From: Candidatus Latescibacterota bacterium | GTDB taxonomy: Bacteria > Latescibacterota > UBA2968 > GCA-2709665 | DNA: 64,000 nt | Assembly (NCBI GenBank): GCA_963667175.2 | Contig: CAXXXF010000018.1 | Span: 1-64,000, forward strand | Direction: 5' to 3' | In this document: positions 10,630 through 46,643 of the stretch, in pieces | How positions within the stretch are numbered: the stretch's first letter is position 1 | How the letters are laid out: each line of letters starts with the position of its first letter | The notes under the pieces: generated by a model | Databases searched by the model: none | Told to the model about the DNA's origin: nothing | What the model saw: only the letters and a program-made list of their open reading frames with translations | Program-made: the position numbers and the translations under genes

Positions 10630-10805
10630 GGCTTCTCCGAATGAGTTGATCCCGGCGCTGTACGTCAGTCTGACCGGCGAAACGCGGGAACCCGGATGTT
10701 CGATACAAAATAGCGGGACGAATGGCAAAGTACGGCGGGGATGATACCCTGTCAACCCGAATCAGCGGATTGCGAACCGGGCAGGCGCGGGAACGCCAAA
10801 CAAGA

Positions 10806-10893
10806 CTCACATGGATGGACAGGATGGGCAGGATAAAATGCAAAAAGCGCGAGAGAACGAGAAGACGAGGAACGGCGGTGAATCGATTCACCA
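10806..10893 (+). repeat. Intergenic repeat (ACATGGATGgAC...GAGGAACGGCGGTGAATCGATTCACCA)
   Basis: Inverted copy at about 46465-46556; ends in the palindrome GGTGAATCGATTCACC. Confidence 0.7.
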
Positions 10894-31174: not shown

Positions 31175-31360
31175 TCAGTCGATCAATGCGTATAGTTCAT
31201 CCGCGATTTCTTCGGTGCCCATTATCGAAGTATTGAGAGCGATTTTGTCGGCCAACATCGGACTATGGCGGGTTACTTCATCTTTTGAGATCTCGTGCCA
31301 GATCGGCAAGATCCGTGGATTACCTTCGACGTCGAGTGACCAAAGGCCATCAAGTTCCTT
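31175..31360 (-). pseudogene. C-terminal half of a TIR domain
   Basis: ELDGL...RILPIWHEISKDEVTRHSPMLADKIALNTS...EEIADEL, a typical bacterial TIR C-terminus; N-terminus replaced by the ApeA gene. Confidence 0.75.
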
Positions 31361-31385
31361 ACCGATCAATAAGGAAAAACTTACC

Positions 31386-32852
31386 ATGCGACTATTGGAG
31401 CCAATAGAGAAGCCTGGTTTTTTCTGGTTGCCGGAAGATGCCGAAAACCAAGTGCCAGGTATTCTTCGCGTTTCTAATTCAGGTGAAGTCGAGCTCGAAG
31501 TATTTCGATATTACGACGCCATGGCACACGCCAGTGGGACACGACCTCTCGGAAGTTGGCCACTATATCCTGTATTCGGTGGGGACCGGAATATTAAGCG
31601 AATATTGGGTATAGTCGACAATACGCCGATTACGTTAGATGAATGCACCTATAGCTACAAATATAAGGCTATGCTGACTGGAGGAGTATCGGTCTCAAAC
31701 ATTATTGCAAGATATGCGTTTTTCGGCACGAACTATAACGCAGGAGAGGAAGTTACCTTCAGGAAGCTCACATTCGCTGTGGAAGGGCTTGATGAGTGGC
31801 TTTCGGTCACAGGATTCAAGGTTGATCCCGATTTTGAGGGGGACTCCAGAATTGGCGCATCAATTGGCTTTCGTCTACCAAACGATATCGAAATTGCCCT
31901 TTCTGCTGTACTAAAAGTGAAGTTTATCTTCTTAGCGTCTATAGCCGGTCATAGAGTTACCCAACCAGGAGTCTCTCAGAAAGCGTATATAAGTCTGGTT
32001 GCCGAGAAGCCGATGCCGCTCGTTAGCTTTCTCGATTTGACGTACAAACTTCATGACTTCCTATGTCTTGCAATTGATAGGAACACGGCAATAGAGACAA
32101 TCGTAGGATACTCAAGTGACCGAACGATCGAGAATAGAGGAAAGAAGCACGAAGTTGGGATTTCGGTATATTGTCGAAGCAAGCGGTATTCGCGAGAAAA
32201 GACAGAAATCCATCTGCCTGAAATGCTATTGCCCTATAGGGTTGTGGCTTGCCGAATTGACAGCATTTTGACCAAATGGCTCGATAACTATGAGAGTCAT
32301 GAGCCTGTGTTCAATCTATACTTCGCTACCAAATCTAATGACAAAGCATTCTTGGAGAGCAGATTCTTATCGTTGGCACAAGCAACAGAAGCTCTTCATA
32401 GGAGTATTTCCAGTGAGACGCCAATGCCAAAAGCGGAGTTTCGCAAGCTCCGAGGCAGAATATTGAAAATCGTCCCTGATGGTGTTCAAAAGGAACTCAT
32501 ACAGACAAAGTTGAGTTTTGCGAACGAACTCACGTTGCGAAAACGTATTGAAAGAATGATAGAGCCCTTTGTGTGTTTCTTTGGCACTAAAGAAGAAAGG
32601 AAGGATTTCATTCGTGAAGTTCGCGACACGAGAAACTATCTGACACATTTCGATAGAGAGCTAAAGGCCAAGGCCGCAAAATGGGAGGATCTCTGGAGGC
32701 TTTACATGAAACTTGAAGCCCTACTTCAATTGCATTTCATGCTTCTAATTGGATTGGACCTTGAGTTTATCAAGACCATAGTGAATGAGAATCACTCGCT
32801 CCGCGAAAAACTCGAGCTTGAATATCAGGAGTCATCGGAGGAATCGGTGTAG
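31386..32852 (+). CDS. ApeA-like HEPN protein (ApeA N-terminal domain + HEPN)
   Basis: GFFWLPE...VPGIL, ITLDEC, FLSLAQATEALHR, LRKRI, VRDTRNYLTH. Confidence 0.85.
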   Translation: MRLLEPIEKPGFFWLPEDAENQVPGILRVSNSGEVELEVFRYYDAMAHASGTRPLGSWPLYPVFGGDRNIKRILGIVDNTPITLDECTYSYKYKAMLTGGVSVSNIIARYAFFGTNYNAGEEVTFRKLTFAVEGLDEWLSVTGFKVDPDFEGDSRIGASIGFRLPNDIEIALSAVLKVKFIFLASIAGHRVTQPGVSQKAYISLVAEKPMPLVSFLDLTYKLHDFLCLAIDRNTAIETIVGYSSDRTIENRGKKHEVGISVYCRSKRYSREKTEIHLPEMLLPYRVVACRIDSILTKWLDNYESHEPVFNLYFATKSNDKAFLESRFLSLAQATEALHRSISSETPMPKAEFRKLRGRILKIVPDGVQKELIQTKLSFANELTLRKRIERMIEPFVCFFGTKEERKDFIREVRDTRNYLTHFDRELKAKAAKWEDLWRLYMKLEALLQLHFMLLIGLDLEFIKTIVNENHSLREKLELEYQESSEESV

Positions 32853-32988
32853 GACGGCGGATTTTACGTACAATTGAGTTTTGTGCCAAACGCGGGTAAA
32901 TATAGGCCCAACGCACAACGAGACCTGAATGGCTGCATGTAATTGAGCCAAATCTCCCAAACAAGACCGCAACTGCCAATACCGTTTT

Positions 32989-35900
32989 TTATGGTAATCC
33001 CACTTTCGCCTCGCCTCTTCCTGTCAAATTCAATATCCCCGCAATCCGCCTCGCTACCTCCGCAAAGTACTGTACTTCCTCTGGCTTGAGCGCTCGGTCG
33101 AGCACCTTCCGTTCGCGATAGGATAGCCATTTCTTGAGTACCTGATAGCCGCCGAGTTTGTAGTTCCAGACCGCGGCGGGGACGTTGCGCCAGAAGGCTT
33201 TGTCATTCAGGTATATGTCAAACGTATTGTCACCCAGCACTGATTTCACCGAGCCCAGCGCCTGCTTTTCATCCGCCGTGTATTTTCGTTGTTCAGCGCG
33301 CCCCTGTCCCGGCATCACGGCTTCGCCCGATCCGTAATGACCCCACCCGGCGGTGACCGCGAAATCGTCACCCGACATATTACGATTATCGACAGTTGAT
33401 GGCACGGCAATCGCTTTGATTTCCGGTCGCAGTGTGCCCTGGGTCACACCCGACACCGGCGTCTCGGGGTCAAGTAGCCCTGCCAGTTCACGGCCCCGAG
33501 CAGCGGATTCAGCAAAGGCCTGAGCTGCTCCATTGCCTTTGCCGTCCGGCCATCCAGGCAGCGGAATACGCGGCCATCCCATTTTCAGCGCACCCGCGTT
33601 AGTATCCCGGTAGTCAGAATCGTGAAGAGTGTAAATGACGTTGTAAAACAGGTCTTCTACACCTGCATCGAAGCATTCGAGGTAGCTTCCGGCTTCAGTA
33701 GTCAAGTTGTGCCTGTGCTGCGGTGAATCGGGCTGCCCGCCTTCGTATCGAAGAAATGCGGGGAAAAAGTATGACATTCCATTTCCGAAATTGTCTGCAA
33801 GATGTCTAACGACGGTGCCACGGCAGAATTCTTGTCCGGGTTCTCGTTTTCTTGCTTCGATCCAAATATTCCCGTTGAATACATGCGGCTTATAGTCAGC
33901 GCAGGGAGTATCGAGAAGTCCTGATTCCGACTCCCAATAAAGCCAACGATTGTCAAAGGGCCGATAGGCGTATTTGACGAAACTACCCGTGTCCGGTCCA
34001 CCGCGTCGAAGCAACTCATCCCGTACCGCGTGGGCGTCATACTTCGCTGTGGTACGCATTGCAGTTCGATACCGGCCTGCTAATTCACCATGACTCAAGT
34101 CTGAATCGAAATAGTCAGCAATACGTTTCTCCAACCTCCTACGATCGGTATCAATTAGAAACGAATCACGGTTAGTCTTGATCGCTGAGAACGAAACAGG
34201 AATCAAGTCGGGCAGCGCCGGCCAATCGAACCAATCTTCACTGACTGCCATTGGTTTGAAGGGTAAGCCGAGGCGGAGAATAGGCGGAGATGCCGAATAG
34301 CCATCATCGATTTCGGTGGCTTTGACCGCGTTCAACAATGCCGTTCTTCTTTCATCGGCCTTTGCTTGATGAAAATCCCTATATAGGACTCGTCCTTCTA
34401 TCGAACCATCTTGGTGGGCTCCGGATCTTGTTAGCAAGACGATGCTGGTGCCAACCTTGATACCCGGCGATTGGCCTCGAATGGAGAAGATCGTCTCGCT
34501 GGTCCGGCCATCAGGCGCATACTCGGAGATGATGCGGTCTCCGTGTAAGTTGTCAATCCGAATGGTATCAAACGTATCCAGAAATTGCTCACGCATTCCC
34601 GTATGTGACAGGCCGTCCAGCCAGGAATAGTTGGAAATGAACGAGACGACGCCCTGGCCGGTTTTCGCGATTCGGCGTTCCGCCATCCGGAAAAACCGTA
34701 CGTAAGGATCGTTTAAACCCTGGCCTTCCGGCCGGCGCACCCGCTTCGTAGTGCGGTAAGCTTCGGACAGATCGCGCTCTTCATCTACGGCCACAGCGGC
34801 GAATCCGTTATAGGGTGGATTGCCGAGGATTACGAGGATCGGTGTGTCCTGTTTCACCTTTCCGGCCCGGTCGCGCTCCTGCTGAAGTTCGGGAAAGGCA
34901 ACTGTCTGCGACCCCTCTCCGGTACCCTCCCAGTCGGTCAGTGCGTTGGTGAGCAGGATGCCCAAACGTTCCGATCCGTCGTTCGAGAACGTCGCGTCAA
35001 GATCTCTGAGGGCGAGGTCAACCTGGAGATGGGCAACCACGAAGGGCGCCGGCATGATCTCGAAGCCGAACACACGCTCCGTCGCCGCTTGCTTTACCCG
35101 CGCACCGGCCAGGGCACCGAGTCCGCGTCCTTCCAGATTGGCGGCAATGCGGCGCAGTACCTCAGCGATAAACGCGCCAGTCCCACAGCAAGGGTCCAGC
35201 ACGTAGACGTTCTCCGCGGCAAGTCCGTCTACAATGCCAAGGTCGTCCTTGAGCGCCTTATCAACGCGGGCAACCATGTAGCGCACGACTTCAGACGGGG
35301 TGTACCAGACCCCCAACTGCTTTCGTAAGTCCGGATCGAATGCTTGCAGGAATGGTTCATAGAAATACGTTACGGCTTCTCCCTCGTCAAAACGGGCAAA
35401 GAAGGCGTCACCATCCACCCGGTCAAGCGCGGCGGACGTCCAATTCAGCACCTCAACAAGGCCGATGGAACGCAGTCTGCCTGGCTGCGATACCTGCTGG
35501 AATAAAGCCTGCATTACCGGCGTGCGGAGATGCCACACGGCTTCATGCCAATTGAACTCGATCCCGGGCGCAGGCTTATTTCGCGCCCAAAGCACCCACG
35601 CGGAGAATATGCCGTAGAATAGTGTCTGAACCAGCGTCGAATGGAAAAAACGCTCACCACGTTCGTCCTCGAACCGAACACCCAGTGATTCCTCCAACGC
35701 GGATCGTATCGCGTTGAGCGACGAAGAATCGTCCGCGGCTACGACTCGAGTCAGTCCGTCGCGGGCGTACGAGGCGAGTAACCAGGCAAGGTCCTTCGGT
35801 TCGGTGATCGCCGCCTGGTGAGACAGCGCACGGATCAGGTATTCACTCAGCCCGGCGCCCACCTCGTGGGCGAAGGTGCGCGGCTTTTGCAACCTTCGGT

Positions 35901-36366
35901 TGAACTCATCCTCGGTGTCAGCGAGGCTATAAGATTCGAAATCGGTCTCAACTCCGGCTCTATCGCGACCGACAAGAGTAAACCCTCGAAAATTGGTCAT
36001 CAAAACCAGGTCGTACCGGGTCCAATATCGTGTTACCTGACCACGAACCTCCGGCGTACCCATATTTTCCGCTGTAGGCTTTACTTCCACGACGCCGCGT
36101 TCCGGAATTTGTCCGGGGCGCGGATTGCCCTTTTGCACCTGATTGGACGTGTAGAGACCAAAGTCTGGGCGTCCCGAACCCTGATCGGCCAACTCGCCGA
36201 CGCAGTATACCTTCGGCTTAAGTGACTTTCCAACCGCATTCAAGAGATTGGCCAGCGGCCCATGGTTCGAGAGCTCTCCGGTTCCCCCGCCCATGGCTCG
36301 GATTCGTCGAAGGTCAGTGAAATAGTCTTCAACTGCCTGCGTCAGTCTCGCTGTCGATTTGGCCAT
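32989..36366 (-). CDS. Single-chain type IIG/ISP-like restriction-modification enzyme (nuclease + N6-MTase + TRD)
   Basis: PDFGLY...VVEVK, GVWYTP, VLDPCCGTG, ILGNPPY, YAYRPFD, and a type ISP C-terminal GGYQVLKKWLSYRE; no helicase domain. Confidence 0.9.
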   Translation of the reverse strand: MAKSTARLTQAVEDYFTDLRRIRAMGGGTGELSNHGPLANLLNAVGKSLKPKVYCVGELADQGSGRPDFGLYTSNQVQKGNPRPGQIPERGVVEVKPTAENMGTPEVRGQVTRYWTRYDLVLMTNFRGFTLVGRDRAGVETDFESYSLADTEDEFNRRLQKPRTFAHEVGAGLSEYLIRALSHQAAITEPKDLAWLLASYARDGLTRVVAADDSSSLNAIRSALEESLGVRFEDERGERFFHSTLVQTLFYGIFSAWVLWARNKPAPGIEFNWHEAVWHLRTPVMQALFQQVSQPGRLRSIGLVEVLNWTSAALDRVDGDAFFARFDEGEAVTYFYEPFLQAFDPDLRKQLGVWYTPSEVVRYMVARVDKALKDDLGIVDGLAAENVYVLDPCCGTGAFIAEVLRRIAANLEGRGLGALAGARVKQAATERVFGFEIMPAPFVVAHLQVDLALRDLDATFSNDGSERLGILLTNALTDWEGTGEGSQTVAFPELQQERDRAGKVKQDTPILVILGNPPYNGFAAVAVDEERDLSEAYRTTKRVRRPEGQGLNDPYVRFFRMAERRIAKTGQGVVSFISNYSWLDGLSHTGMREQFLDTFDTIRIDNLHGDRIISEYAPDGRTSETIFSIRGQSPGIKVGTSIVLLTRSGAHQDGSIEGRVLYRDFHQAKADERRTALLNAVKATEIDDGYSASPPILRLGLPFKPMAVSEDWFDWPALPDLIPVSFSAIKTNRDSFLIDTDRRRLEKRIADYFDSDLSHGELAGRYRTAMRTTAKYDAHAVRDELLRRGGPDTGSFVKYAYRPFDNRWLYWESESGLLDTPCADYKPHVFNGNIWIEARKREPGQEFCRGTVVRHLADNFGNGMSYFFPAFLRYEGGQPDSPQHRHNLTTEAGSYLECFDAGVEDLFYNVIYTLHDSDYRDTNAGALKMGWPRIPLPGWPDGKGNGAAQAFAESAARGRELAGLLDPETPVSGVTQGTLRPEIKAIAVPSTVDNRNMSGDDFAVTAGWGHYGSGEAVMPGQGRAEQRKYTADEKQALGSVKSVLGDNTFDIYLNDKAFWRNVPAAVWNYKLGGYQVLKKWLSYRERKVLDRALKPEEVQYFAEVARRIAGILNLTGRGEAKVGLP

Positions 36367-36465
36367 AATACGTTATGCTCTTTCAAGTGGCTCAAGTTCG
36401 AGTTTCTCAACCGAAAGCCGGATGCTTTAGTTGGAGAGACATATCTGATAGTTTTCCCAAAGGAA

Positions 36466-39400
36466 TTACATCAATCCGCGCCTCGCAGCAACTTCCCTCA
36501 GGCCTTGTTTGAGTTCACAGGAAAGGTCTGATCGAAGGAGCTTCTCGATGAGTTCTTTGCCGTTGGGCCAAGCAAGCGGCCGGGATTTGATCTGGTCCAG
36601 GTAAGATAGGAGTTTAGCGACCGCTTTGGGATGATGTTTCCAGAGTTCGTTCTTGTAAACCAAATATACGACCCGACTGCTATTAGCGCTTTGGACTTTT
36701 GACTCCACAGGTTGCATCTTGACTGCCAAATCAACGGCCTCAGAGAACACCTCCTTTAGATCAGGCAACCAGCAAAGTTGAATCCAGATTTCGTCAGCGC
36801 TAAGTGACGCCGGGACACCCTGAGTCCGGTATTCCCAATAGCGTTTGCCCCAAAGTTCCCACCACTCGCGTTGCTGCGAGTCAGTCATGTGTTCGAGACG
36901 GTTTCCTATTGTAATCGCGAAGTAACGTCGCGCATTGACGCCTGCGTGGTTGAAAAATTCGGGAATCCAGACTTCCAGCGGGTCGTCGGCATAGTACGTC
37001 AACATTTCGGTATAGCGCGCGATAAATTGCTTTTTCCCTTCAACCGAGAAATCTTGCTCTATTCGGGAAACGGCATCAAGGAATGCCTCCCCCATGAGTT
37101 CAGCCACTGCCGGGCTGAGACGCCCATACAAAAAGCCGTCCCAAATTGCCTGATAGTCCTCAACATTGGAGCGATTCGTAAAAAACGGTACAAGTTTTGC
37201 CTCTGTCCAATCTCGATCGACACCGATCAAAAAAGAAAGATACCGTGCAAGGACGGCTCTGCCCAACCTTCCGGCAAGTGTTTTATCCTCGACGATATCT
37301 AAAAGTGCATCACGATAGGCTGGGCTTAGGTCATCGGGCTCCCCGGCTTGCTGTTTTCGCAAGCAATTCAGGCTATGCAGCCAGAAACCGGCGAGAAGAC
37401 CGGCGGTGCTGTTAATCGCCGCCGTAAGCCAGGACCCGATTTCCCTTCGCCCATCGTCGCGGTCAACGTGGCACCACAGGTTAGCTGCGATTTGGTTAGC
37501 TTGTGTAAGCGGTATGTGGGCATGTTGGGTCTGGTTATTTGACACCAAGTTGTAGAGGGATTCGGCGATGGGACGTGCACAGTTTTTTTGCAATTCGATC
37601 CTTTCCAATTGCTGAATGACTTGACAAACTCGATTCTGGTCGAGTTCTGTCACCGACCACAACCGCATTAGAGTGTTCCATAAATCGGTATCCCAGTTCC
37701 GTCTCTTGGCCACCGCATCCGCCAAATCAAGTCCCCACTGGAAATCACGCTTTGCCGCATCCGAGACGGCTATGTTAAGCCCGAGACGGTCTGGTTCATT
37801 AATTCCTGTATCCTGGAATGACAATAGTTCGTCGGCCCATTCTTCAGCGGGTTTCGAAAGGAGTTCGTCTACGGACCAGGGACTCTGGCGGATTCCCGGG
37901 ACGGAACTCATCCAGTGAGTGAGATCTGGATGGTCGCTCGGCTGGAATTCAGGAAAACGACTCAGCACGTCGTCTAGAGCTTCTTTGGCCAACGAACAGT
38001 CGGGTGCCGATTTATGTAGCCAGTCGATCCATGGTGCGCCGTGAAAGGCGCGGAACTCCAGTGGGTGAGAGTCCCACCCGACAAATGTTGCTACAGTCGG
38101 TAGCAACCGGAGCGGGGGTGAAGGTAACGACATCTCCGAAGCCTCCGGTGTAAAGGGTCGCAAGGCGACTCGGCGAGTATGCGGGCCGAAACGTGCAGTG
38201 AACGCTGAGCAGGCCTCGAAAAAGGTAATGCGGGAGCCGACCCGCCCATGGATCGGGGAAGGCCGCCGTCGTTGGAAAAAGAGAGCAACGCGTGCATCCA
38301 ACGGTCCCGCCGGGGTAATGGCGAAGGCACGTATACAAGGGGTTCCGACGCAACACGGGAAGCCCCAGCGGTGGTGAATAGACACCAACCGGACGCCCGT
38401 GAGGGACAGGCCGGGCCGTATGGGGTGGCGGACAGGCTCGTAGTACCCGTGAAGCCGGGTAACGCCGGTGGAGGGAAGGGGCCTGACTTCGGATGTGCTT
38501 GCGAAGGGGACAACTGTCGGGAGAGTGGCGCAAGCCTATTACCTCCTCTAAAAGTAGATGAGGCGACTCCGGAACAAGCTTGGGCTTCAGGTGAAGCTGT
38601 CCGGGCAGTGCGGGCAGCGTGTGCCTGAAGGCGACGTCCGTCGGAGAGCCGGATGCGGGAAACCCGCACGTCCGGTTCGACGAGCGGGATGTGGAAACGG
38701 AGCACGGAGCGGCTATTGAGGCACCGCCAGACGAAAGGGGCGGAAACAGATAAGAAGGGCCACTCCTAAACCACCGCGCCACATCCCGACTCTACTGAAA
38801 TGACGGTAGGCAGTTTTGGTCTTCGTGTCCTCATCTTCTTGTATTGGCGCGCGATAGGCCTGAACGGCATCTATGACAGCCATTCGTTGCCGCTGATCGG
38901 CTTTCGGGTACGTCTTTCGCAAACAGACGAACAGTTCATGATGCGCGGCGTGATCGTAAAGATCCATGCAAGCCAATAACCATTCGATTTTTTCGCTGGA
39001 ATTTGGATCATTGTGGAACGATAATGCGTGCACCGCGAGTCGGCGTAGAAGCGGTGACTCCTCACCTGCGAGTCTGTCACACCACTGCGCTGCCTTCTCC
39101 GGCCGATTTGTCGCGAGCCATTCCAGGCAGTCTCGGGCGGCATCGATCAATACGTCAATTGTCTCCGGGTATTTGTCCTGTTCGTGCGGTTCGATGGCGC
39201 TTCGGCTATCACTGACCGGATTCCAATCGCGGTTGGCCTCCTGCCACGTGGTGAGTGTCCGGTGTTGCGTCGTCAGGTGCTCGATAACGGTCGCAAGTAG
39301 CGTCTCCGCTACAAGGTCGAGATTCGGTTTCAATCCGTTAGTCCAGAGTTCATTGATCGTGTGGTGATCACTGACGGGTGCGCATTCGATATCCATTCGT

Positions 39401-40770
39401 GGACTCTGTTCCTCCTCGTCTGAAACAGGCCAAGAAAAACCCCGCTTGACCACAACGCGGCTTGCCGCCATCGCATCGAAGACATCGACGACACGATCCA
39501 ACAGTTTGTTCTTTATGCATCGTTCTCCCAAACAAAACAACGGATGCTCAGATTCCAATTGAGCTGGCGCTGTAGCGAGCAGAAGCGAAACCCATCGCGA
39601 TAGAATTTCACAATCCAATTTCGCGTCTTCACAGGACTCAATAGTTCGACATAGCTGACGCCAGAATGCCGGATTTACCCGCATATGGTGCCGGCCGATT
39701 GACAGAAAAAGCTCATCTGGATGTTCGCATAGGAATTGCCGGGCGAGCCAATTTGACAAGAGGACATCCCGTTCACTCAGTTCGCCGCTTCCAAAGAGTC
39801 CATCCAGATTATCGCGCTCGTCGAGCCAGGCGACCCATTCAACCGACGTCGCGGCATCGGTGAAAAATCGTGTCTTCGTTTCGTCTGTTAGCGCATCCTT
39901 AATAACATCCATCGCCTCGTCGTCAAGGGTAGGCGGCTTTTGGGCGATTTCCGTTATCTCCCGCTGCCAGTCAAGAATACTGCGTCTTGCGTGATTGGCA
40001 AGACCGTGAACTCCTCTAAGGAGAGGGCCGTGGTCATTGTCGGATGTCTTTATATATTCGATCGGTACTATGCCGAGATTCTGCCACCGGCTGTCCTTAG
40101 CATCATGCGTAAGTGCAAAACGTCTATCAGTTTCGCTGACCGGTAAAGCCCGTGACAAATAGTTCATGATTGTGTCGTTATGACTGTAACCTACGAAAAG
40201 AACGGTGAATGAACGAAATACCTCGACAAGAAAACTCCGCGCCCACCCCTCAGTGAGATATGCGCGGCCAAAATCTGCGTCTGTGAGAACCATCTCGTCA
40301 GGGCGATCAAGAGCGCCGTGAACATGAACGATTCCACTAAATTTCCTCCCCAAAGGGAGGGCGGGAGCTCGAAATACGTCCGGTTCCGAGTCGAATAAGC
40401 CGTCTACCGCCTGCTCGAACAGAAGATCGAAATTAGTGGTGACGATCAGGGGTGATTTGGATTTCGGATATAACCTCAGAAGATCCCGGTGCAAATCGGT
40501 AGAGTGGGGGTTTTCCTGAGAAAGCTCTTGTTTTGCTCGAGTATGTACGTCCGTACCGCTGTATCGAAGCAGACCCAGGAATTGGTCTTCGGACTCGTCG
40601 TCCTGCAAGGTTCGTCCCGTGCCGCGAGCGACTGCCCTTGTAAGGCCTCGGAAGCTCGGAAGGTTCGCCGGGTCTCCCATCGATACGCCTGCCCCAGCGA
40701 ATACGACCAGCTTGTCGTCGCGTAAGGCGTTTACTAACTGCCTGGGAAAATCGATGCCTTTAATTTTCAT
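36466..40770 (-). pseudogene. Sir2/Dsr1-like anti-phage NADase (about 1180 aa) interrupted by a group II intron
   Basis: SIR2 motifs VVFAGAGVS, TTNFD, HVHG, LFVGYS. Removing 38034-38795 rejoins ...AYRHF-T-WIDWLH... in frame (3543 nt). Confidence 0.85.
38034..38795 (+). mobile_element. ORF-less group II intron (762 nt), antisense to the host gene
   Basis: 5' GTGCG; domain V GAGCCGGATGCGGGAAACCCGCACGTCCGGTTC at 38646-38678; 3' end CCCGACTCTAC; no RT ORF; EBS1-like CATGGATCG (38247-38255) is complementary to the 5' exon CGATCCATG (38025-38033). Confidence 0.92.
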
Positions 40771-40821
40771 AGTCGATTCGTTGGATTCGTTAGCGCCACA
40801 TTACGCCACGCAGCATTGCCC

Positions 40822-40895
40822 CACCCTTCAATTCGTCCCCTCGCTGACGCTGTCCCTTTACCAGATTTCCCCGAATGCGTAGTCCTCCAACCATC
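40822..40895 (-). pseudogene. Diverged duplicate of the AAA ATPase 3' end
   Basis: WLEDYAFGEIW*RDSV versus WVEKYAHGEIWERDGV at 41603-41670. Confidence 0.65.
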
Positions 40896-41101
40896 GCGCG
40901 GATGCGCCGCAGGTCTGTGAAATATCGCTCAACCGCTGTCGTCAATCGGGTCGCTGTATCGGTCGTGATACGCGCCTTTCAACGCTCCGGGTGTCCGTGG
41001 CGCTTGAATTTCGACCTTAATTCCTATATTTTTCGGATATCGTCGGTATGATACCTGTCACCAGTCCGAGAGAACTTCCTTTACGCACGCAGGTCGTCGC
41101 C

Positions 41102-41530
41102 ATGCAAAAGAACCCCTGCCAATCTCTGGGTGAGCGCATCGCGAGTGTGCTCGAATCCCACCAGGAAGTTCTGGAGGCTTATCTGTTCGGCTCCCACGCG
41201 CTGGGGACGGCACAGCCCCACAGCGACATAGACGTAGCCGTTTACGTCGATGAAGCGAATGTCAATGAAGGCACTTTCGGATATCGGGCGCAATTGACGG
41301 CGGAGATCATGGCCGGCCTCCACGTCAACGACGTTGACCTGCTGATTCTCAACCACGCTCCCCCGGTGCTTTACTACCACGTGCTGCGCGACGGCATCCG
41401 CGTCCTGTCTCGCGACTTGGCGGCGACAACGACGAGGGAAGGCTACGCGGTTTCCCGATACTGCGACTTCGTTCCCCAGGTTGCAAAAATGGATCCGCCA
41501 TGGCGTATGCGCGCCGATGGTGAACGGTGA
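41102..41530 (+). CDS. MntA-type nucleotidyltransferase antitoxin (HepT partner truncated)
   Basis: AYLFGS...SDIDVAV...VDLLILN; the overlapping GTG ORF at 41527 stops resembling a HepT toxin after about 11 codons. Confidence 0.85.
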   Translation: MQKNPCQSLGERIASVLESHQEVLEAYLFGSHALGTAQPHSDIDVAVYVDEANVNEGTFGYRAQLTAEIMAGLHVNDVDLLILNHAPPVLYYHVLRDGIRVLSRDLAATTTREGYAVSRYCDFVPQVAKMDPPWRMRADGER

Positions 41531-41602
41531 CTCCCGGACGTCCGAATGCCCTCGCCGTGCCGCTCTTGTTGACCTTCCGTCAAGGTGATGAACCGCCACC
41601 CC

Positions 41603-42703
41603 TCATTCCGGCGCTTCCTCGACGCCGTCCCTTTCCCAGATTTCCCCGTGCGCGTATTTCTCAACCCATGAGTCGAGATCTTCGGCCTGGATCCTCTTGA
41701 ATTCCGTGCTTTCGTTATTGCGTTGCACGACCACGATGTCGTCCGCGTCGAAGCTATCGACGAAGGCGCTGGACTGTGTGCTGACGAGCACCTGCACATG
41801 CTCGCTGACGGAACGAAACAGGGAGGCAATCACGTCCACCGCGCAGGGGTCCAGTCCGAGTTCCGGTTCGTCCACCACAATCAGTGACGGCAGTTTTTCA
41901 GCCGGCTGTAACAGAAGCGATATCAGACACATCGCTCGCAAGGTGCCGTCCGAAAGCTGATGCGGCCCGAAAACGAGATCGGACTCGCGATGCCGCCAGT
42001 TGAGTATTATATCTCTTGATTCGGCGGGCTCCAGATCGAAGTCATCGAAGAACGGCGCCACCTGCCGGACCGTGGTGACAATACTCTGGTAAGCGGTTTC
42101 ACTCGTGGCCTTGAGCGCGTAGAGTATCGCCGCGAGGTTGCCCGCGTCGGGCTTGAGCCAACGGTTGTCTCCCATGTAGCCGTATTGCCGGACTCTCGAC
42201 GACGGCGATGTATTGTGAAAGTGATAGACGCGGCAACGATTCAGCAGAACCCTCAGTGTTTTCGCCGTGGGCTCCCCTGTTTCCGCCACTTCTCCAATCT
42301 TCGTTTCCATATGACCAACGCCCAGCTGTACTATTTTGGGGCTGGGAAAACCTTCCTGATGGAACGCAGCTGTTTCTTCCGCGAATATGAGCGCATCCCC
42401 CGCGGCGTGGAAGAGTCTCATATGGTAGGTGTCCAATCCGTTCTCCACCTGGAACACCATCTTCGCTTCCATTTGCGGGGTCACTCCGGGGCCGAAGTGC
42501 AGGTTCCCCGTGGCCTTACCCGTCGCGCTGACGTGCTGCTGAAGGCGTCCGCCCATCAGTTCATTCACCAGCTTGAAAAAGGCAATGAGATTGCTCTTGC
42601 CGGCTCCGTTGGCGCCGATGAGGACGTTGAGCGGCTTGAGCTCCAGGGTCATCTCTTTAATGGAGCGAAATCCCTTAATTTCGACGTTGTTCAGCGTTGT
42701 CAT
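41603..42703 (-). CDS. ABC/AAA_21-family ATPase
   Basis: Walker A GANGAGKSN, signature LSDGT, Walker B VVDEPELGL, STQS. Confidence 0.88.
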   Translation of the reverse strand: MTTLNNVEIKGFRSIKEMTLELKPLNVLIGANGAGKSNLIAFFKLVNELMGGRLQQHVSATGKATGNLHFGPGVTPQMEAKMVFQVENGLDTYHMRLFHAAGDALIFAEETAAFHQEGFPSPKIVQLGVGHMETKIGEVAETGEPTAKTLRVLLNRCRVYHFHNTSPSSRVRQYGYMGDNRWLKPDAGNLAAILYALKATSETAYQSIVTTVRQVAPFFDDFDLEPAESRDIILNWRHRESDLVFGPHQLSDGTLRAMCLISLLLQPAEKLPSLIVVDEPELGLDPCAVDVIASLFRSVSEHVQVLVSTQSSAFVDSFDADDIVVVQRNNESTEFKRIQAEDLDSWVEKYAHGEIWERDGVEEAPE

Positions 42704-43414: not shown

Positions 43415-46400
43415 TCAAAACACGTACCGTATGCCGACCTGGACCTCGCGCGGGTCCCCGAAGCCGGACTGCACGGTGCCGTCGAAGTTGAACAGCAGGC
43501 CCCCGGTGGAGGGGTCGCGGTAGTTGTCCGTGTTGAGCAGGTTGAAGACCTCGACAATGGCCTCCAGCGCGCCGTTGCCCATTGAAATCGGGCGTGTGAG
43601 GCGCACGTCCCACGAAAAGAACCCGTGGTCTTTGCGCAGGGTATTGCGCTGGACAATGCCGCCGTCGGCGCAGACGCGGTCGGACGTGGGGCCCCACGGG
43701 TTGGTCGTGGCGCGGCTGGACGCCCGGTTGTTGCCGCCGCACGCGGCGGAGACCGGCTGCGGCGAGTAGTAGCTCACACGGTTGTTCATATAGACGTCGC
43801 CGGGGAGTACGGCCAGCGCCCAGGCGTTGAAGCGGTGGCGCTGGTCACGGTCCGAAAAGCCCCACTCGCGGTCCAGCCGGGTGGGATCCACGTAGCGAAA
43901 GGTGAAGGGGTCCCGCTCGTTATCGTCGTCGGATTTGTCCCAGGACAGCGTGTAGTTGATCTGGAACTGAAACTGTTCGCGCATCACACGCCGCAGCCCC
44001 AGGCTGAGGCCATTGTAGCTGGACTTTGCGGTGCTCTCGGCTGTGATCAGGTTGCCAATGCCGTTTCCCCCGTCCGGACCCAGCCCGGTCGACCACGGAG
44101 AACCGTACGCGGCGTCGTTACGGTTCACGAAACGCGTGAGATTGTCGGTACGTGCGTAGGCATAATCGACGGCGCCCACAAGTCCCGATGCCTGAAACTC
44201 ATGCTCGATGCCCGCGTTCAGGCTGACGGTTCGCGGGTTCTGAAAATTCTCGTCGAAGACGTGGACGTTCGGCTGGAATGGACCCCCTTCCGGCATGGGC
44301 AGCAACTCGCCGTAGGTCGGCGGCGGGCCCAGGATCGGGGTCAGCTCGCTGGACCGGAAGAGGGACTGCCCGCGGGAGCCGTTGGTCGAGCGGGTGCTGG
44401 CCAGGTTCAGCCCCGGGATGCGGGCGTAGTAGACCCCGGCGCTGGCGCGCACGAGGGTCCTGTTGTCGCCGTGCGCGTCGTAGGCCAGGCCAATCCGCGG
44501 CTGGAGCATGTCCATGTCGGACGGAATCCTGCCGTTGGACGGGAACCTGTGGGCGCCCTCGTCATTGGTCACCGTCTTGCCGATGAAATCGGCGAAGAAG
44601 ACGTTGGAAGGATCGGTGATCGGGTCGGGCTGGATCTGCGCCTCCCATCGAAGGCCATAGTTGACCGTCAGTCGGCCGGACACCTGCCAACTGTCCTGCA
44701 CGAACAGCGCCAGTTCCTGCTGAGGGATGCTCTGGGTGCCGGCGTCTTCCACGGACAGCCCGCCGACGCCGGCCTGTTCCAGGTAGAACAGCACCGGTCC
44801 CGTGATCTGCGCGCCCTCGGCGCATACGCCCTCGGTGCTGGAGTTTCCGTCCGAACATTCGACGTAGCGGTTGCCGTTTTCCACGAAGTTGAGAAACCCG
44901 TCCACCGAGTCGAAGATGTATCGTCCGTTGGCGAAACCGATAAAGGTCTGCGTCGATTCGACGCGGTTCCACTCGACGCCGGCCTTGAACAGGTGGCCGC
45001 CCCTGGCCAGTGAGACGTTGTTGAGCAACTGGACGCGAGTGTCGTAGTATTCCACCGGGATGAAGAACGGCATCCCGAAGCGGTATCCGTGATCGAAGTC
45101 CATGCCGGTATCCGGGAAGGGGCGCCCGGTATCGGGGTTGACCGGTCCCGAATAGGGCCGCGGCCGGTCCTCTCGGGAGACCTGGAACCGGAACTCATTG
45201 ACGGTACGCGGTGAGAGAAGCGATACCAGGCTGCCGTTGAACGCGTGCGACCCGTCTCTTTCAATCGCGTTCGCGCTGCGTCCCCATGAGTCCACGTCGA
45301 ACGTGCCGTTTTCCTGCTCCGACCAAGTATAGTTGTATTTGAAGGTGGCGGAGTGGTCTTGCGAGAGGCGGAGGTCCACTTTGGCCAGGAAAGCGCGGGC
45401 GTCGTTGGTACGGTCGATGGCGCCGTAGTCTCCCCGCAGCGCCCCGTTGAACGCCGTGTCCATAAATGACCGCAAACGGGGGTCCATGCGCCCCGCGTCG
45501 TTCTGCCGGGTGTCTCTCAATACCTGCTGATCGTACGCGGCGAAGAAGAACGCCTTGTCCCGCTTCAGCGGACCGCCGAGCGTGAAGCCGAATTGTCCCT
45601 GCCTGAAGCGAGGCCGGCGTTCGGCGCCGTTGCGCCTCGCGTTTCCGGACAGCGCGTCGTGTTTGCCGAAGAAATGCGCCGATCCGCTGAGTCTGTTCGT
45701 GCCCGATTTGGTAATGACGTTCACGAATCCGCCGCTCGATCGCCCGAATTCCGCGTTCGCGCCCTGGGGAACGACGACGATTTCAGCCACCGCATCCAGA
45801 TTGAACGTGAAGGCCGGTCGCTGGCCCCCGCGTTGCTCGCCGAAGAACGGGTTGTTGAAGTCCGCGCCGTCCACCGAGACGTTGTTGTGGATGCCGCGCT
45901 GGCCGCCGATGGTCAGTTCGTCTCCGTCCGGCCCCTGGACGATTCCCACGCCGGGCGTCAGGAGCGTGAGGTTCAGAAAGTTGCGTCCGTTGTTGGGCAG
46001 GTCCCGTACCGCTTCCTCAGGCAGGCGGGTGGCCGTCTCGGTCCGGGTGACGTCGACGGCGGGCCTGCTGGCCACAACCACGAACTCGTCCATTTCAATA
46101 ATCATCTTGATGATCAGTTCAACCGTCTCTCCAACCCGGACCTGCACACCCGTCTGCCGGGCTTCGGCCCATCCCTCGGCGCGTACCGTTACGTCGTAGA
46201 AGCCGAGAGGAAGCAGCGTTGCGGTGAACGTCCCCACGTCGGACGACGTGAGGACTCTCCGGTAATTGGTACCCGCCTCCCTCAGGATGACGGTGGCGTC
46301 TTCGACGGGATTGTCGAACTGATCGCATACGAGGCCCCGGATCACGCCCGTCGTGGCCTGGGACTGTGCACCAGCCGGTCGGTATATCAGGGCCATCGAC

Positions 46401-46552
46401 AGCAGAAGAATGGACAGTGTGCGTATCAGGGATCGCAGTGGCCAGAGTGGCGACGCGCGGTCAATGGTGAATCGATTCACCGCCGTTCCTCGTTTTCTCG
46501 TGCATTTCTCGGGTTTTTCTCGCGCTCTTTGGCATTCAAGCTGTGCATCCAT
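43415..46552 (-). CDS. TonB-dependent receptor (Oar-like, carboxypeptidase-regulatory-like N-domain)
   Basis: LPNNGRNFLNL, AEFGRSSGGFVNVITKSGTN, QPRIGLAYD, C-terminal VQVGIRYVF. True start is uncertain (46396-46552). Confidence 0.9.
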   Translation of the reverse strand: MDAQLECQRAREKPEKCTRKRGTAVNRFTIDRASPLWPLRSLIRTLSILLLSMALIYRPAGAQSQATTGVIRGLVCDQFDNPVEDATVILREAGTNYRRVLTSSDVGTFTATLLPLGFYDVTVRAEGWAEARQTGVQVRVGETVELIIKMIIEMDEFVVVASRPAVDVTRTETATRLPEEAVRDLPNNGRNFLNLTLLTPGVGIVQGPDGDELTIGGQRGIHNNVSVDGADFNNPFFGEQRGGQRPAFTFNLDAVAEIVVVPQGANAEFGRSSGGFVNVITKSGTNRLSGSAHFFGKHDALSGNARRNGAERRPRFRQGQFGFTLGGPLKRDKAFFFAAYDQQVLRDTRQNDAGRMDPRLRSFMDTAFNGALRGDYGAIDRTNDARAFLAKVDLRLSQDHSATFKYNYTWSEQENGTFDVDSWGRSANAIERDGSHAFNGSLVSLLSPRTVNEFRFQVSREDRPRPYSGPVNPDTGRPFPDTGMDFDHGYRFGMPFFIPVEYYDTRVQLLNNVSLARGGHLFKAGVEWNRVESTQTFIGFANGRYIFDSVDGFLNFVENGNRYVECSDGNSSTEGVCAEGAQITGPVLFYLEQAGVGGLSVEDAGTQSIPQQELALFVQDSWQVSGRLTVNYGLRWEAQIQPDPITDPSNVFFADFIGKTVTNDEGAHRFPSNGRIPSDMDMLQPRIGLAYDAHGDNRTLVRASAGVYYARIPGLNLASTRSTNGSRGQSLFRSSELTPILGPPPTYGELLPMPEGGPFQPNVHVFDENFQNPRTVSLNAGIEHEFQASGLVGAVDYAYARTDNLTRFVNRNDAAYGSPWSTGLGPDGGNGIGNLITAESTAKSSYNGLSLGLRRVMREQFQFQINYTLSWDKSDDDNERDPFTFRYVDPTRLDREWGFSDRDQRHRFNAWALAVLPGDVYMNNRVSYYSPQPVSAACGGNNRASSRATTNPWGPTSDRVCADGGIVQRNTLRKDHGFFSWDVRLTRPISMGNGALEAIVEVFNLLNTDNYRDPSTGGLLFNFDGTVQSGFGDPREVQVGIRYVF

Positions 46553-46643
46553 GTAAATTGTCGCATTTTCAATTCAGTTAGCCAACAAAAAAAGCGACCC
46601 GTAAGTCGCCTTCGTTCACGTCACCCAGCCATTTGCGCCGCGG

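Follow-up and report, generated by a model that had tools for sequence, protein, structure and literature searches.

Probable ectopic, antisense insertion of an ORF-less group II intron into the sole Dsr1-like defence gene of a Candidatus Latescibacterota genome

Group II introns without an open reading frame (ORF) of their own are described from Thermosynechococcus elongatus, in which 28 intron copies, 17 of them ORF-less, form families with diverged exon-binding sites (EBS) and in which the ORF-less introns are mobilized in trans by a 'driver' intron-encoded protein (IEP; PMC2882425). Insertion at ectopic sites is reported as rare for IIA/IIB introns (PMC3898094) as well as for RmInt1 of Sinorhizobium meliloti (PMC1802570). 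From a transcript in which a group II intron is present only as its complement, the intron cannot be spliced, and antisense insertions are accordingly described as unconditional disruptions (PMC3898094). Here, we analyzed a stretch of 64,000 nucleotides from Candidatus Latescibacterota (hereafter the window; contig CAXXXF010000018.1 of assembly GCA_963667175.2, positions 1 to 64,000), in which an ORF-less group II intron lies antisense within a gene resembling the defence gene Dsr1. The observations described below make us highly confident that this intron was recently copied to an ectopic site in the sole Dsr1-like gene of the genome and that it was mobilized in trans by the reverse transcriptase (RT) of a sibling intron lacking an endonuclease (En) domain.

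The intron occupies the following positions of the window:
38034..38795, + strand: ORF-less group II intron, 762 nt (subfamily A copy 'A1'), with ends GTGCG...CTAC and matches to RF02003 and RF00029
38059..38196, + strand: 5′ part of domain I (RF02003, group-II-D1D4-4; 102.3 bits, cut-off 49, E 1e-21, full model 1-138)
38646..38678, + strand: domain V (DV), from the RF00029 alignment and a local fold; starts with GAGC
38682..38792, + strand: domain VI (DVI), of unusual length, in which the local fold leaves A38789, the 7th base from the 3′ end, bulged

The 5′ end GTGCG (38034-38038) and the 3′ end ..CTAC at 38795 agree with the conserved GUGYG and AY ends, and the same ends were found in all 26 copies of the genome. 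Scanning of the whole window against Rfam at the gathering threshold yielded only two matches, both on the forward strand. RF02003 was matched over its full model length, as expected for a domain I-IV architecture, and RF00029 (Intron_gpII, DV/DVI) was matched at 38644-38795 with 45.4 bits (cut-off 40). Local folding of 38640-38795 (z = -5.19) gave the DV hairpin followed by a long DVI helix with A38789 bulged. The GAGC at the start of DV includes AGC, the triad. With about 110 nt, DVI is several times longer than the Rfam consensus, RF00029 aligning only to the base of the helix with a long insertion, and this extension (38682-38792) is common to ORF-less and RT-encoding copies. Domain IV (DIV) comprises about 160 nt without an RT/maturase ORF, the intron measuring 762 nt compared to 1976-1979 nt in its ORF-containing siblings, and remnants of such an ORF were sought in the ORF-less DIV without finding any beyond the shared flanks. 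As the RT/maturase ORF is missing, the copy at 38034-38795 is considered non-autonomous. Judged by its ends, the Rfam D1-D4 and DV/DVI matches, the bulged A and the pairing of EBS1 with the intron-binding site 1 (IBS1) described below, the element is a group II intron, for which self-splicing is predicted.

The interrupted gene lies on the opposite strand and is represented by three features:
38796..40770, - strand: 5′ portion of the interrupted gene (658 codons + 1 nt; SIR2_2, PADLOC Dsr1)
36466..38033, - strand: 3′ portion of the interrupted gene (2 nt, 521 codons plus stop; DUF4020, PADLOC Dsr1)
38713..40770, - strand: truncated ORF of 685 aa resulting from the insertion (from the ORF list and junction arithmetic)

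Joining 40770..38796 to 38033..36466 restores a frame of 3543 nt, i.e., 1180 codons with the terminal stop only. The N-terminal part (P0001, 658 aa) contains the Pfam domain SIR2_2 (4.1e-21, at about 40066-40449), the C-terminal part (P0002, 521 aa) DUF4020 (2.1e-08, at about 36595-36909). The PADLOC profile Dsr1 (PDLC04167) matched both the SIR2 half (7.9e-51, profile 6-376) and the C-terminal half (2.7e-17, profile 753-1052 of 1248), and only one Dsr1-like gene was found in the genome (one match among five candidates scored). In alignments with ThsA and other SIR2 chains, the motifs TTNFD and VHVHG correspond to TTNYD and HGD, their Asn and His presumably being the catalytic residues, and a search of solved structures gave no match to the C-terminal part. 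The truncated ORF consists of 658 native codons and 27 codons from the antisense strand of the intron. Since the sense strand of the intron is the forward strand, whereas the gene is read from the reverse strand, and since the complement of the intron cannot splice, the disruption would be unconditional. The initial annotation of this locus had described a 762-nt intron with intact termini, domains V and VI and no RT, antisense within a Sir2/Dsr1-like gene whose frame is restored by exact removal of the intron and whose remaining 685-aa product keeps the SIR2 domain but not the C-terminal region, and all of this is borne out by the data given above, both halves being free of stops.

The state of the gene before the insertion can be read from relatives. 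Compared to the genome of the window (G000; 5.52 Mb, 18 contigs), the genome G001 of the same genus contains an uninterrupted 1176-aa Dsr1-like homolog (3.2e-64 to PADLOC Dsr1), located downstream of the same kind of ATPase. P0001 aligns with its residues 1-658 without gaps at 68% identity and P0002 with residues 660-1174 at 51% identity, while the junction codon A|CA (Thr) of the window corresponds to Thr659. In the DNA of G001, the two sides of the junction directly adjoin each other (query 1000|1763 to G001 2174484|2174483), the site reading CGAGCCATG|TGAAG in G001 and CGATCCATG|TGAAA in the window. Judged by the spacing of the matched pieces, the 762 nt are absent from all six homologous loci found in genomes of the same genus (G001, G005, G009, G010, G011, and G012). 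Furthermore, the site is bridged from 37932 to 39106/39107 by two contigs of relatives in public metagenomes (X2 record 9 and X3 record 17) with 414-415 nt between, compared to 411 nt expected for an intron-free site. Closely related intron pieces (X1-X4, compared to window 37534-39295) were found in metagenome runs from sponges and corals as well as in a single metatranscriptome library; these matches hint at the habitat only.

That defence genes turn over quickly and that the C-terminal half is more diverged from the G001 homolog than the N-terminal half would fit a gene that was already dead or dispensable, the insertion then being a neutral event in a decaying pseudogene. However, the 1180 codons contain neither an internal stop nor a frameshift, the alignments to the 1176-aa homolog are gapless or nearly so, and the SIR2 motifs still align with those of ThsA, all of which makes this explanation unlikely. 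The complete identity of three intron copies, including the one described here, together with the lack of any other lesion in the 1180 codons, implies that the insertion occurred recently. Hence, the recent knock-out that had been proposed initially for this gene is supported by its stop-free halves and by the identity to two other copies and, from the sequence, appears to be the most fitting description.

Searching the genome with the 762-nt intron as query yielded 39 matching pieces, which were assembled into 26 copies and two fragments. Sixteen of the copies are ORF-less and ten contain an ORF, and they can be divided as follows:
Subfamily A, ORF-less: 3 copies of 762 nt, 100% identical, including 38034-38795
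Subfamily B, ORF-less: 5 copies of 758 nt, 98% identical to A
Subfamily C, ORF-less: 7 copies of 761 nt, 91% identical to A
Subfamily C with insert, ORF-less: 1 copy of 1059 nt, with an insertion in DIV
Subfamily R1, ORF-containing: 4 copies of 1978-1979 nt, 94-95% identical to A over the first 451 nt
Subfamily R2, ORF-containing: 6 copies of 1976 nt, 90% identical to A over the first 451 nt

The two copies identical to the one at 38034-38795 are found at G000:C18:278383-279144 and C12:56298-57059. A 441-aa RT/maturase frame is open in all ten ORF-containing copies, so that a helper acting in trans is available, in agreement with the initial assumption of a non-autonomous intron depending on an RT encoded elsewhere. 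The four R1 copies carry the same EBS1 loop and the same candidate EBS2 core as the copy at 38034-38795, and the R1 introns are therefore the most likely helpers of the ORF-less A copies, as far as can be told from these shared elements. One R2 copy (G000:C18:70627-72602) is located 6.6 kb past the window end.

Pfam analysis of the 441-aa protein revealed RVT_1 (96-317) and GIIM (340-409) only. It thus lacks the C-terminal DNA-binding and endonuclease domains, as do En-less IEPs in general. En-less group II lineages comprise the bacterial classes C, D, E, and F and others. The nearest solved relatives of the protein are the GsI-IIC RT (9.5e-54) and the 427-aa group II intron RT/maturase 7uim (1.5e-50), and a tblastn search of plasmids yielded as best relatives unclassified ltrA genes of Planctomycetes and various Proteobacteria with at most 62% identity. 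A search of literature titles and abstracts for the group-II-D1D4 model found none that links this model to an intron class. Introns of group IIC use an IBS1 of 3-4 nt and a site located just after a terminator-like hairpin, whereas the IBS1 found here comprises 7 nt that covary with EBS1, and no hairpin requirement was seen at the targets, which are a dispersed repeat and coding sequence. A short IBS1 and insertion after a terminator-like hairpin are the features by which group IIC is defined (PMC3898094).

Some of the other copies show peculiarities of their own. Intron copies are found in clusters: on contig C6, 547 bp separate an ORF-less copy of type C from an R2 copy (G000:C6:489421-492703), and in the related genome G003 (L045, G003:C52) the 3′ end of one copy is followed immediately by the start of the next. 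In the C-type copy at C13:174459-175517, DIV is enlarged by an insert of about 300 nt.

The elements presumed to govern target recognition are located as follows:
38241..38257, + strand: EBS1 hairpin, with stem CCCG 38241-38244, 9-nt loop CCCAUGGAU 38245-38253, and stem CGGG 38254-38257
38247-38253, + strand: EBS1 CAUGGAU, loop positions 3-9, covarying with the flank
38027..38033, + strand: IBS1 ATCCATG, forming 7/7 Watson-Crick pairs with EBS1
38017..38022, + strand: upstream target motif TAGCCA (TA, then IBS2-like GCC), recurring in other targets
38215..38236, + strand: candidate EBS2 hairpin CUCG-AAAA-AGGU-AAUG-CGGGAG, with core AGGU 38223-38226

The CCCG/CGGG stem around intron positions 208-224 is invariant in all copies in which it was found, while the loop occurs in 11 variants. 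Positions 3-9 of the loop change together with the flank, i.e., with the seven nucleotides upstream of the intron (-7..-1):
A, B, R1: loop 3-9 CAUGGAU, flank ATCCATG
C: loop 3-9 UGUCAGC, flank GCTGACA
Some relatives: loop 3-9 UUGCGAA, flank TTCGCAA
Some relatives: loop 3-9 UUUCGAA, flank TTCGAAA
Some relatives: loop 3-9 UGACGAU, flank (T)TCGTCA

This covariation was evaluated for 44 copies, namely the 26 of the own genome and 18 of 20 stretches from relatives, L049 having been dropped for its unresolved 5′ end and L037 for its lack of the hairpin. They provide 22 distinct loop/flank combinations with 11 loops and 408 cross pairs. Of seven possible Watson-Crick pairs, loops form on average 5.23 with their own flank compared to 2.27 with the flanks of others, and at least six pairs were reached by 12 of the 22 own combinations compared to 3.7% of the cross pairs. 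Pairing was poor in L045, L046, L048, L053, and R2b.

The loop at 38215-38236 may represent EBS2 and pair with (N)CC(U) at about -15..-12. Its 4-nt core occurs in eight variants among the copies, and full pairing with the own -17..-10 flank was observed for 20 of 39, compared to 32% of the cross pairs (3.46 and 2.96 pairs, respectively; L037, L048, and L049 dropped). Examples of matching cores and flanks are CGUU-AACG, AGCU-GGCU, AGCC-GGUU, and AGGC-GCCU. A TA followed by (N)CC at about -17..-12 characterizes the targets of most subfamilies as well as the ectopic sites, and the TA upstream of the EBS2-pairing element is present in most targets, including the three ectopic ones.

The usual target of the family is a different one from the site in the Dsr1-like gene. 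The copies A2, A3, B1, B2, and B5 and all four R1 copies are inserted in one and the same sequence, ..TTTTCATCCTGTCCATCCTGTCCATCCATG^TAAGTT.., in which ^ marks the insertion point, and the seven IBS1 nucleotides given above recur at these canonical sites of A, B, and R1. Sixty-six further, empty copies of the site are present in the genome when up to 4 mismatches in 22 are allowed. With a looser pattern, 102 places were found, at which the ATG frames on the other strand have a median length of about 42 codons, 96 of the 102 being shorter than 200 codons. Since the frames at these sites are mostly short, the canonical target of A, B, and R1 is read as a dispersed, apparently non-coding repeat. 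The site in the Dsr1-like gene has only ATCCATG, the T at +1 and the upstream TA-GCC in common with it and, on this comparison, is best regarded as an ectopic mimic of the usual target. As the site lies outside the canonical repeat and merely looks alike, the insertion would represent retrotransposition rather than retrohoming.

The initial annotation had proposed retrohoming, which would make the site in the Dsr1-like gene a cognate homing site recognized via 9 bp of EBS1-IBS1 pairing. The 9-mer CATGGATCG at 38247-38255 (intron 214-222) is indeed the exact complement of all nine nucleotides preceding the intron (38025-38033), a match expected by chance in 754 positions with a frequency of about 0.003 (754/4^9), and the site also shares the T at +1 and TA-GCC with the canonical ones. 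However, only the 9-nt loop varies between copies, while positions 221 and 222 belong to the constant stem, and the identical copies A2 and A3, like all R1 copies, pair over only 7 nt at their own sites. EBS1 thus comprises 7 nt. The 9-mer consists of this EBS1 and of C221 and G222, with which the closing stem begins, and the two additional matching bases are expected by chance in 1 of 16 cases. Thus, the complementarity noted initially is perfect, but its length does not reflect the length of EBS1. Taken together with the location of A2, A3, and all R1 copies in the dispersed repeat, and with the intact homologs of the relatives, which are intron-free at this position and in G001 differ within IBS1 (AGCCATG), retrohoming to this site is very unlikely, and retrotransposition to an ectopic site is the preferred reading.

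Two empty copies of the repeat (..ATCCTGTCCATCCTGTCCATCCATG^TAAGTT..) are located in the window itself, at about 46538-46559 (+) and about 10804-10825 (-), the former overlapping the start codon of a TonB-dependent receptor ORF (43415-46552, -). Two B copies are found outside the repeat as well. The ORF-less copy B3 (G000:C10:42755-43512; L054:3256-4013) is inserted antisense in a reading frame that, with the intron removed, comprises about 862 codons and contains no Pfam family except a weak BNR_4; this is a second gene disruption by the same intron family. B4 is located antisense at a non-repeat site 13 codons into a 334-codon frame. An R2 copy at G000:C4:375861-377836 (L055:4361-6336) has the same orientation as a 1269-codon TPR/GWxTD gene, which it interrupts after 43 codons and which, unlike the Dsr1-like gene, could in principle be expressed after splicing. 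All C-type copies (C4:159754, C6:489421, C13:106092, C13:174459, C15:278630, C15:563549, C16:418665, and C17:96428) are inserted in a second repeat, which is conserved over 40 nt or more on each side of the intron. Their EBS1 UGUCAGC, together with the candidate EBS2 core CGUU, has no counterpart in any RT-encoding copy of the genome.

An assembly artefact, in which a 762-nt repeat was misplaced or collapsed or an RT ORF was dropped, the latter having been named in the initial annotation as a possible objection, is extremely improbable: although multi-copy repeats are badly handled by assemblers and a near-identical 263-nt contig from a sponge metagenome (X4, window 37702-37964) stops at 37964 before the intron, the flanks are the two halves of one gene with an in-frame junction exact to a single base, which a chimeric join would not give, ORF-less copies of 758-762 nt occur at 15 distinct loci in three length classes, public contigs cross 38455-38608 and 38579-38796, i.e., the boundaries of the ORF-less DIV, and ORF-less copies are also present elsewhere in the genus, e.g., seven in G002 and others in the single-contig genomes G007 and G009. 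Their presence in several genomes of the genus and the lack of ORF remnants imply that the ORF-less lineage is old and originates neither from misassembly nor from a fresh deletion.

Several observations weigh against the proposed recent, En-independent mobilization in trans. The plain minimum free energy (MFE) fold of the whole intron does not contain the EBS1 hairpin and leaves EBS1 unfree. The same lack of ORF remnants in DIV means that descent of the ORF-less copies from the present R1 or R2 by simple deletion is not supported, and binding of the R1 or R2 RT to the ORF-less DIV is a step that we infer. Furthermore, for 15 of 26 copies the local GC skew is positive on the sense strand of the intron, and the orientation of long ORFs is mixed. 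In the absence of such a strand bias, the replication-fork priming typical of En-less introns finds no support here. Finally, none of the public runs searched for the locus holds it, the best share of words being 0.23. As to the fold, the whole-intron MFE structure, which pairs 217-222 with 269-274, was rejected because this pairing is impossible in C and R2 and because the loop covaries with the flank. With regard to the folding check suggested with the initial annotation, the MFE fold pairs these bases elsewhere, and the covariation places seven nucleotides in the EBS1 loop.

According to the proposed course of events, the excised intron RNA would reverse-splice into the DNA strand opposite to the coding strand of the gene, at a site recognized as a mimic of the usual target through IBS1 ATCCATG, the T at +1 and the upstream TA-GCC. 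The En-less RT/maturase of a sibling intron would act in trans, and priming would take place without an endonuclease. The mRNA of the gene would then contain only the complement of the ribozyme and would not be spliced, so that translation would end at a stop 27 codons into the intron. The predicted 685-aa product would retain the SIR2 domain and lack the C-terminal 522 residues including DUF4020. For DSR2, sensing of the phage is ascribed to the C-terminal domain (PMC11850899). By analogy, the truncated Dsr1-like protein should have lost its trigger input; it may be either inert or deregulated, altered regulation having been suggested initially. The defence function of the gene has presumably been lost.

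The Dsr1-like gene is part of a defence island that spans 31215-42703 of the window and contains four other genes:
31215-32852, + strand: ApeA-HEPN (PDC-S58)
32989-36366, - strand: type IIG restriction-modification enzyme
41048-41530, + strand: Pol-beta nucleotidyltransferase, on the strand opposite to the Dsr1-like gene
41603-42703, - strand: HEC-01A-like ATPase

The neighbourhood of ATPase and Dsr1-like gene is also present in G001. A scan of 36300-41100 for promoters and terminators yielded three promoter-like and six terminator-like sites, the same as in shuffled sequences, and is thus uninformative.

The locus does not require any new mechanism and, though clear, represents a rather ordinary case among bacterial retroelements of a known type, and it leaves the understanding of how group II introns work unchanged. 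It represents a natural case of a non-autonomous group II intron family that is apparently still mobile, whose target rule can be read from the covariation of EBS1 and flank across the genus, and in which an ectopic antisense insertion would have removed the only Dsr1-like anti-phage gene of the host, the states before and after being both defined by means of the intron-free homolog. Such a family could serve as a small, En-independent scaffold for gene targeting and could model the relation of helper and passenger among bacterial retroelements. It is conceivable, though for the time being a tentative idea that we regard as somewhat less than probable, that the genus carries a radiating En-less family whose ORF-less derivatives behave like short interspersed nuclear elements (SINEs), have their own target specificities, and knock out host and immune genes. 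If so, SINE-like introns would have a part in determining the defence repertoire of these bacteria, which apparently live in association with sponges or corals.

A limited literature search for group II introns in Dsr1 found no paper containing both terms, which is not proof of absence. With respect to the host gene, the protein shares with Dsr1 and DSR2 the N-terminal SIR2 domain, the long helical C-terminal region, the size of a single protein of about 1200 aa, and the location in a defence island, as far as these systems are described in the sources cited (PADLOC; PMC11850899; PMC10981675). It differs in that it is matched by profile models only. For DSR2, binding of the phage tail tube by the C-terminal domain is described. 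With respect to the mode of disruption, antisense targetrons likewise disrupt genes non-conditionally, their transcripts carrying an inactive complement (PMC3898094), but they are engineered, while the insertion described here is natural and spontaneous.

With respect to the intron, RmInt1 of S. meliloti is the model for En-less homing into a multi-copy element. The likeness lies in an RT/maturase without DNA-binding (D) and En domains and in a multi-copy homing site (PMC1802570; PMC8914252; PMC4615759) as well as in the rare ectopic transposition to sites resembling the homing site (PMC1802570). In contrast to the intron studied here, RmInt1 encodes its own RT, targets an insertion sequence (IS) element, and is reported to show a lagging-strand bias, of which no sign was seen here.

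The closest precedent is the TeI3/TeI4 family of T. elongatus. In both cases, about 26-28 copies of one lineage are present, ORF-less copies outnumber RT-encoding ones, and subfamilies are distinguished by their EBS. TeI4 belongs to the En-containing kind of intron. While the RT found here is En-less, the IEP of EcI5, given as the closest relative of the TeI3/TeI4 proteins, has an En domain (PMC3898094). TeI3, as described, keeps ORF remnants in DIV, whereas none are recognizable in the ORF-less DIV of the family studied here; moreover, the main target of this family is a dispersed non-coding repeat, and the copy at 38034-38795 lies antisense inside a gene. What sets the present family apart from these precedents is thus the combination of an En-less RT with many ORF-less passengers, a non-coding repeat as target, a long DVI, and a DIV free of remnants.

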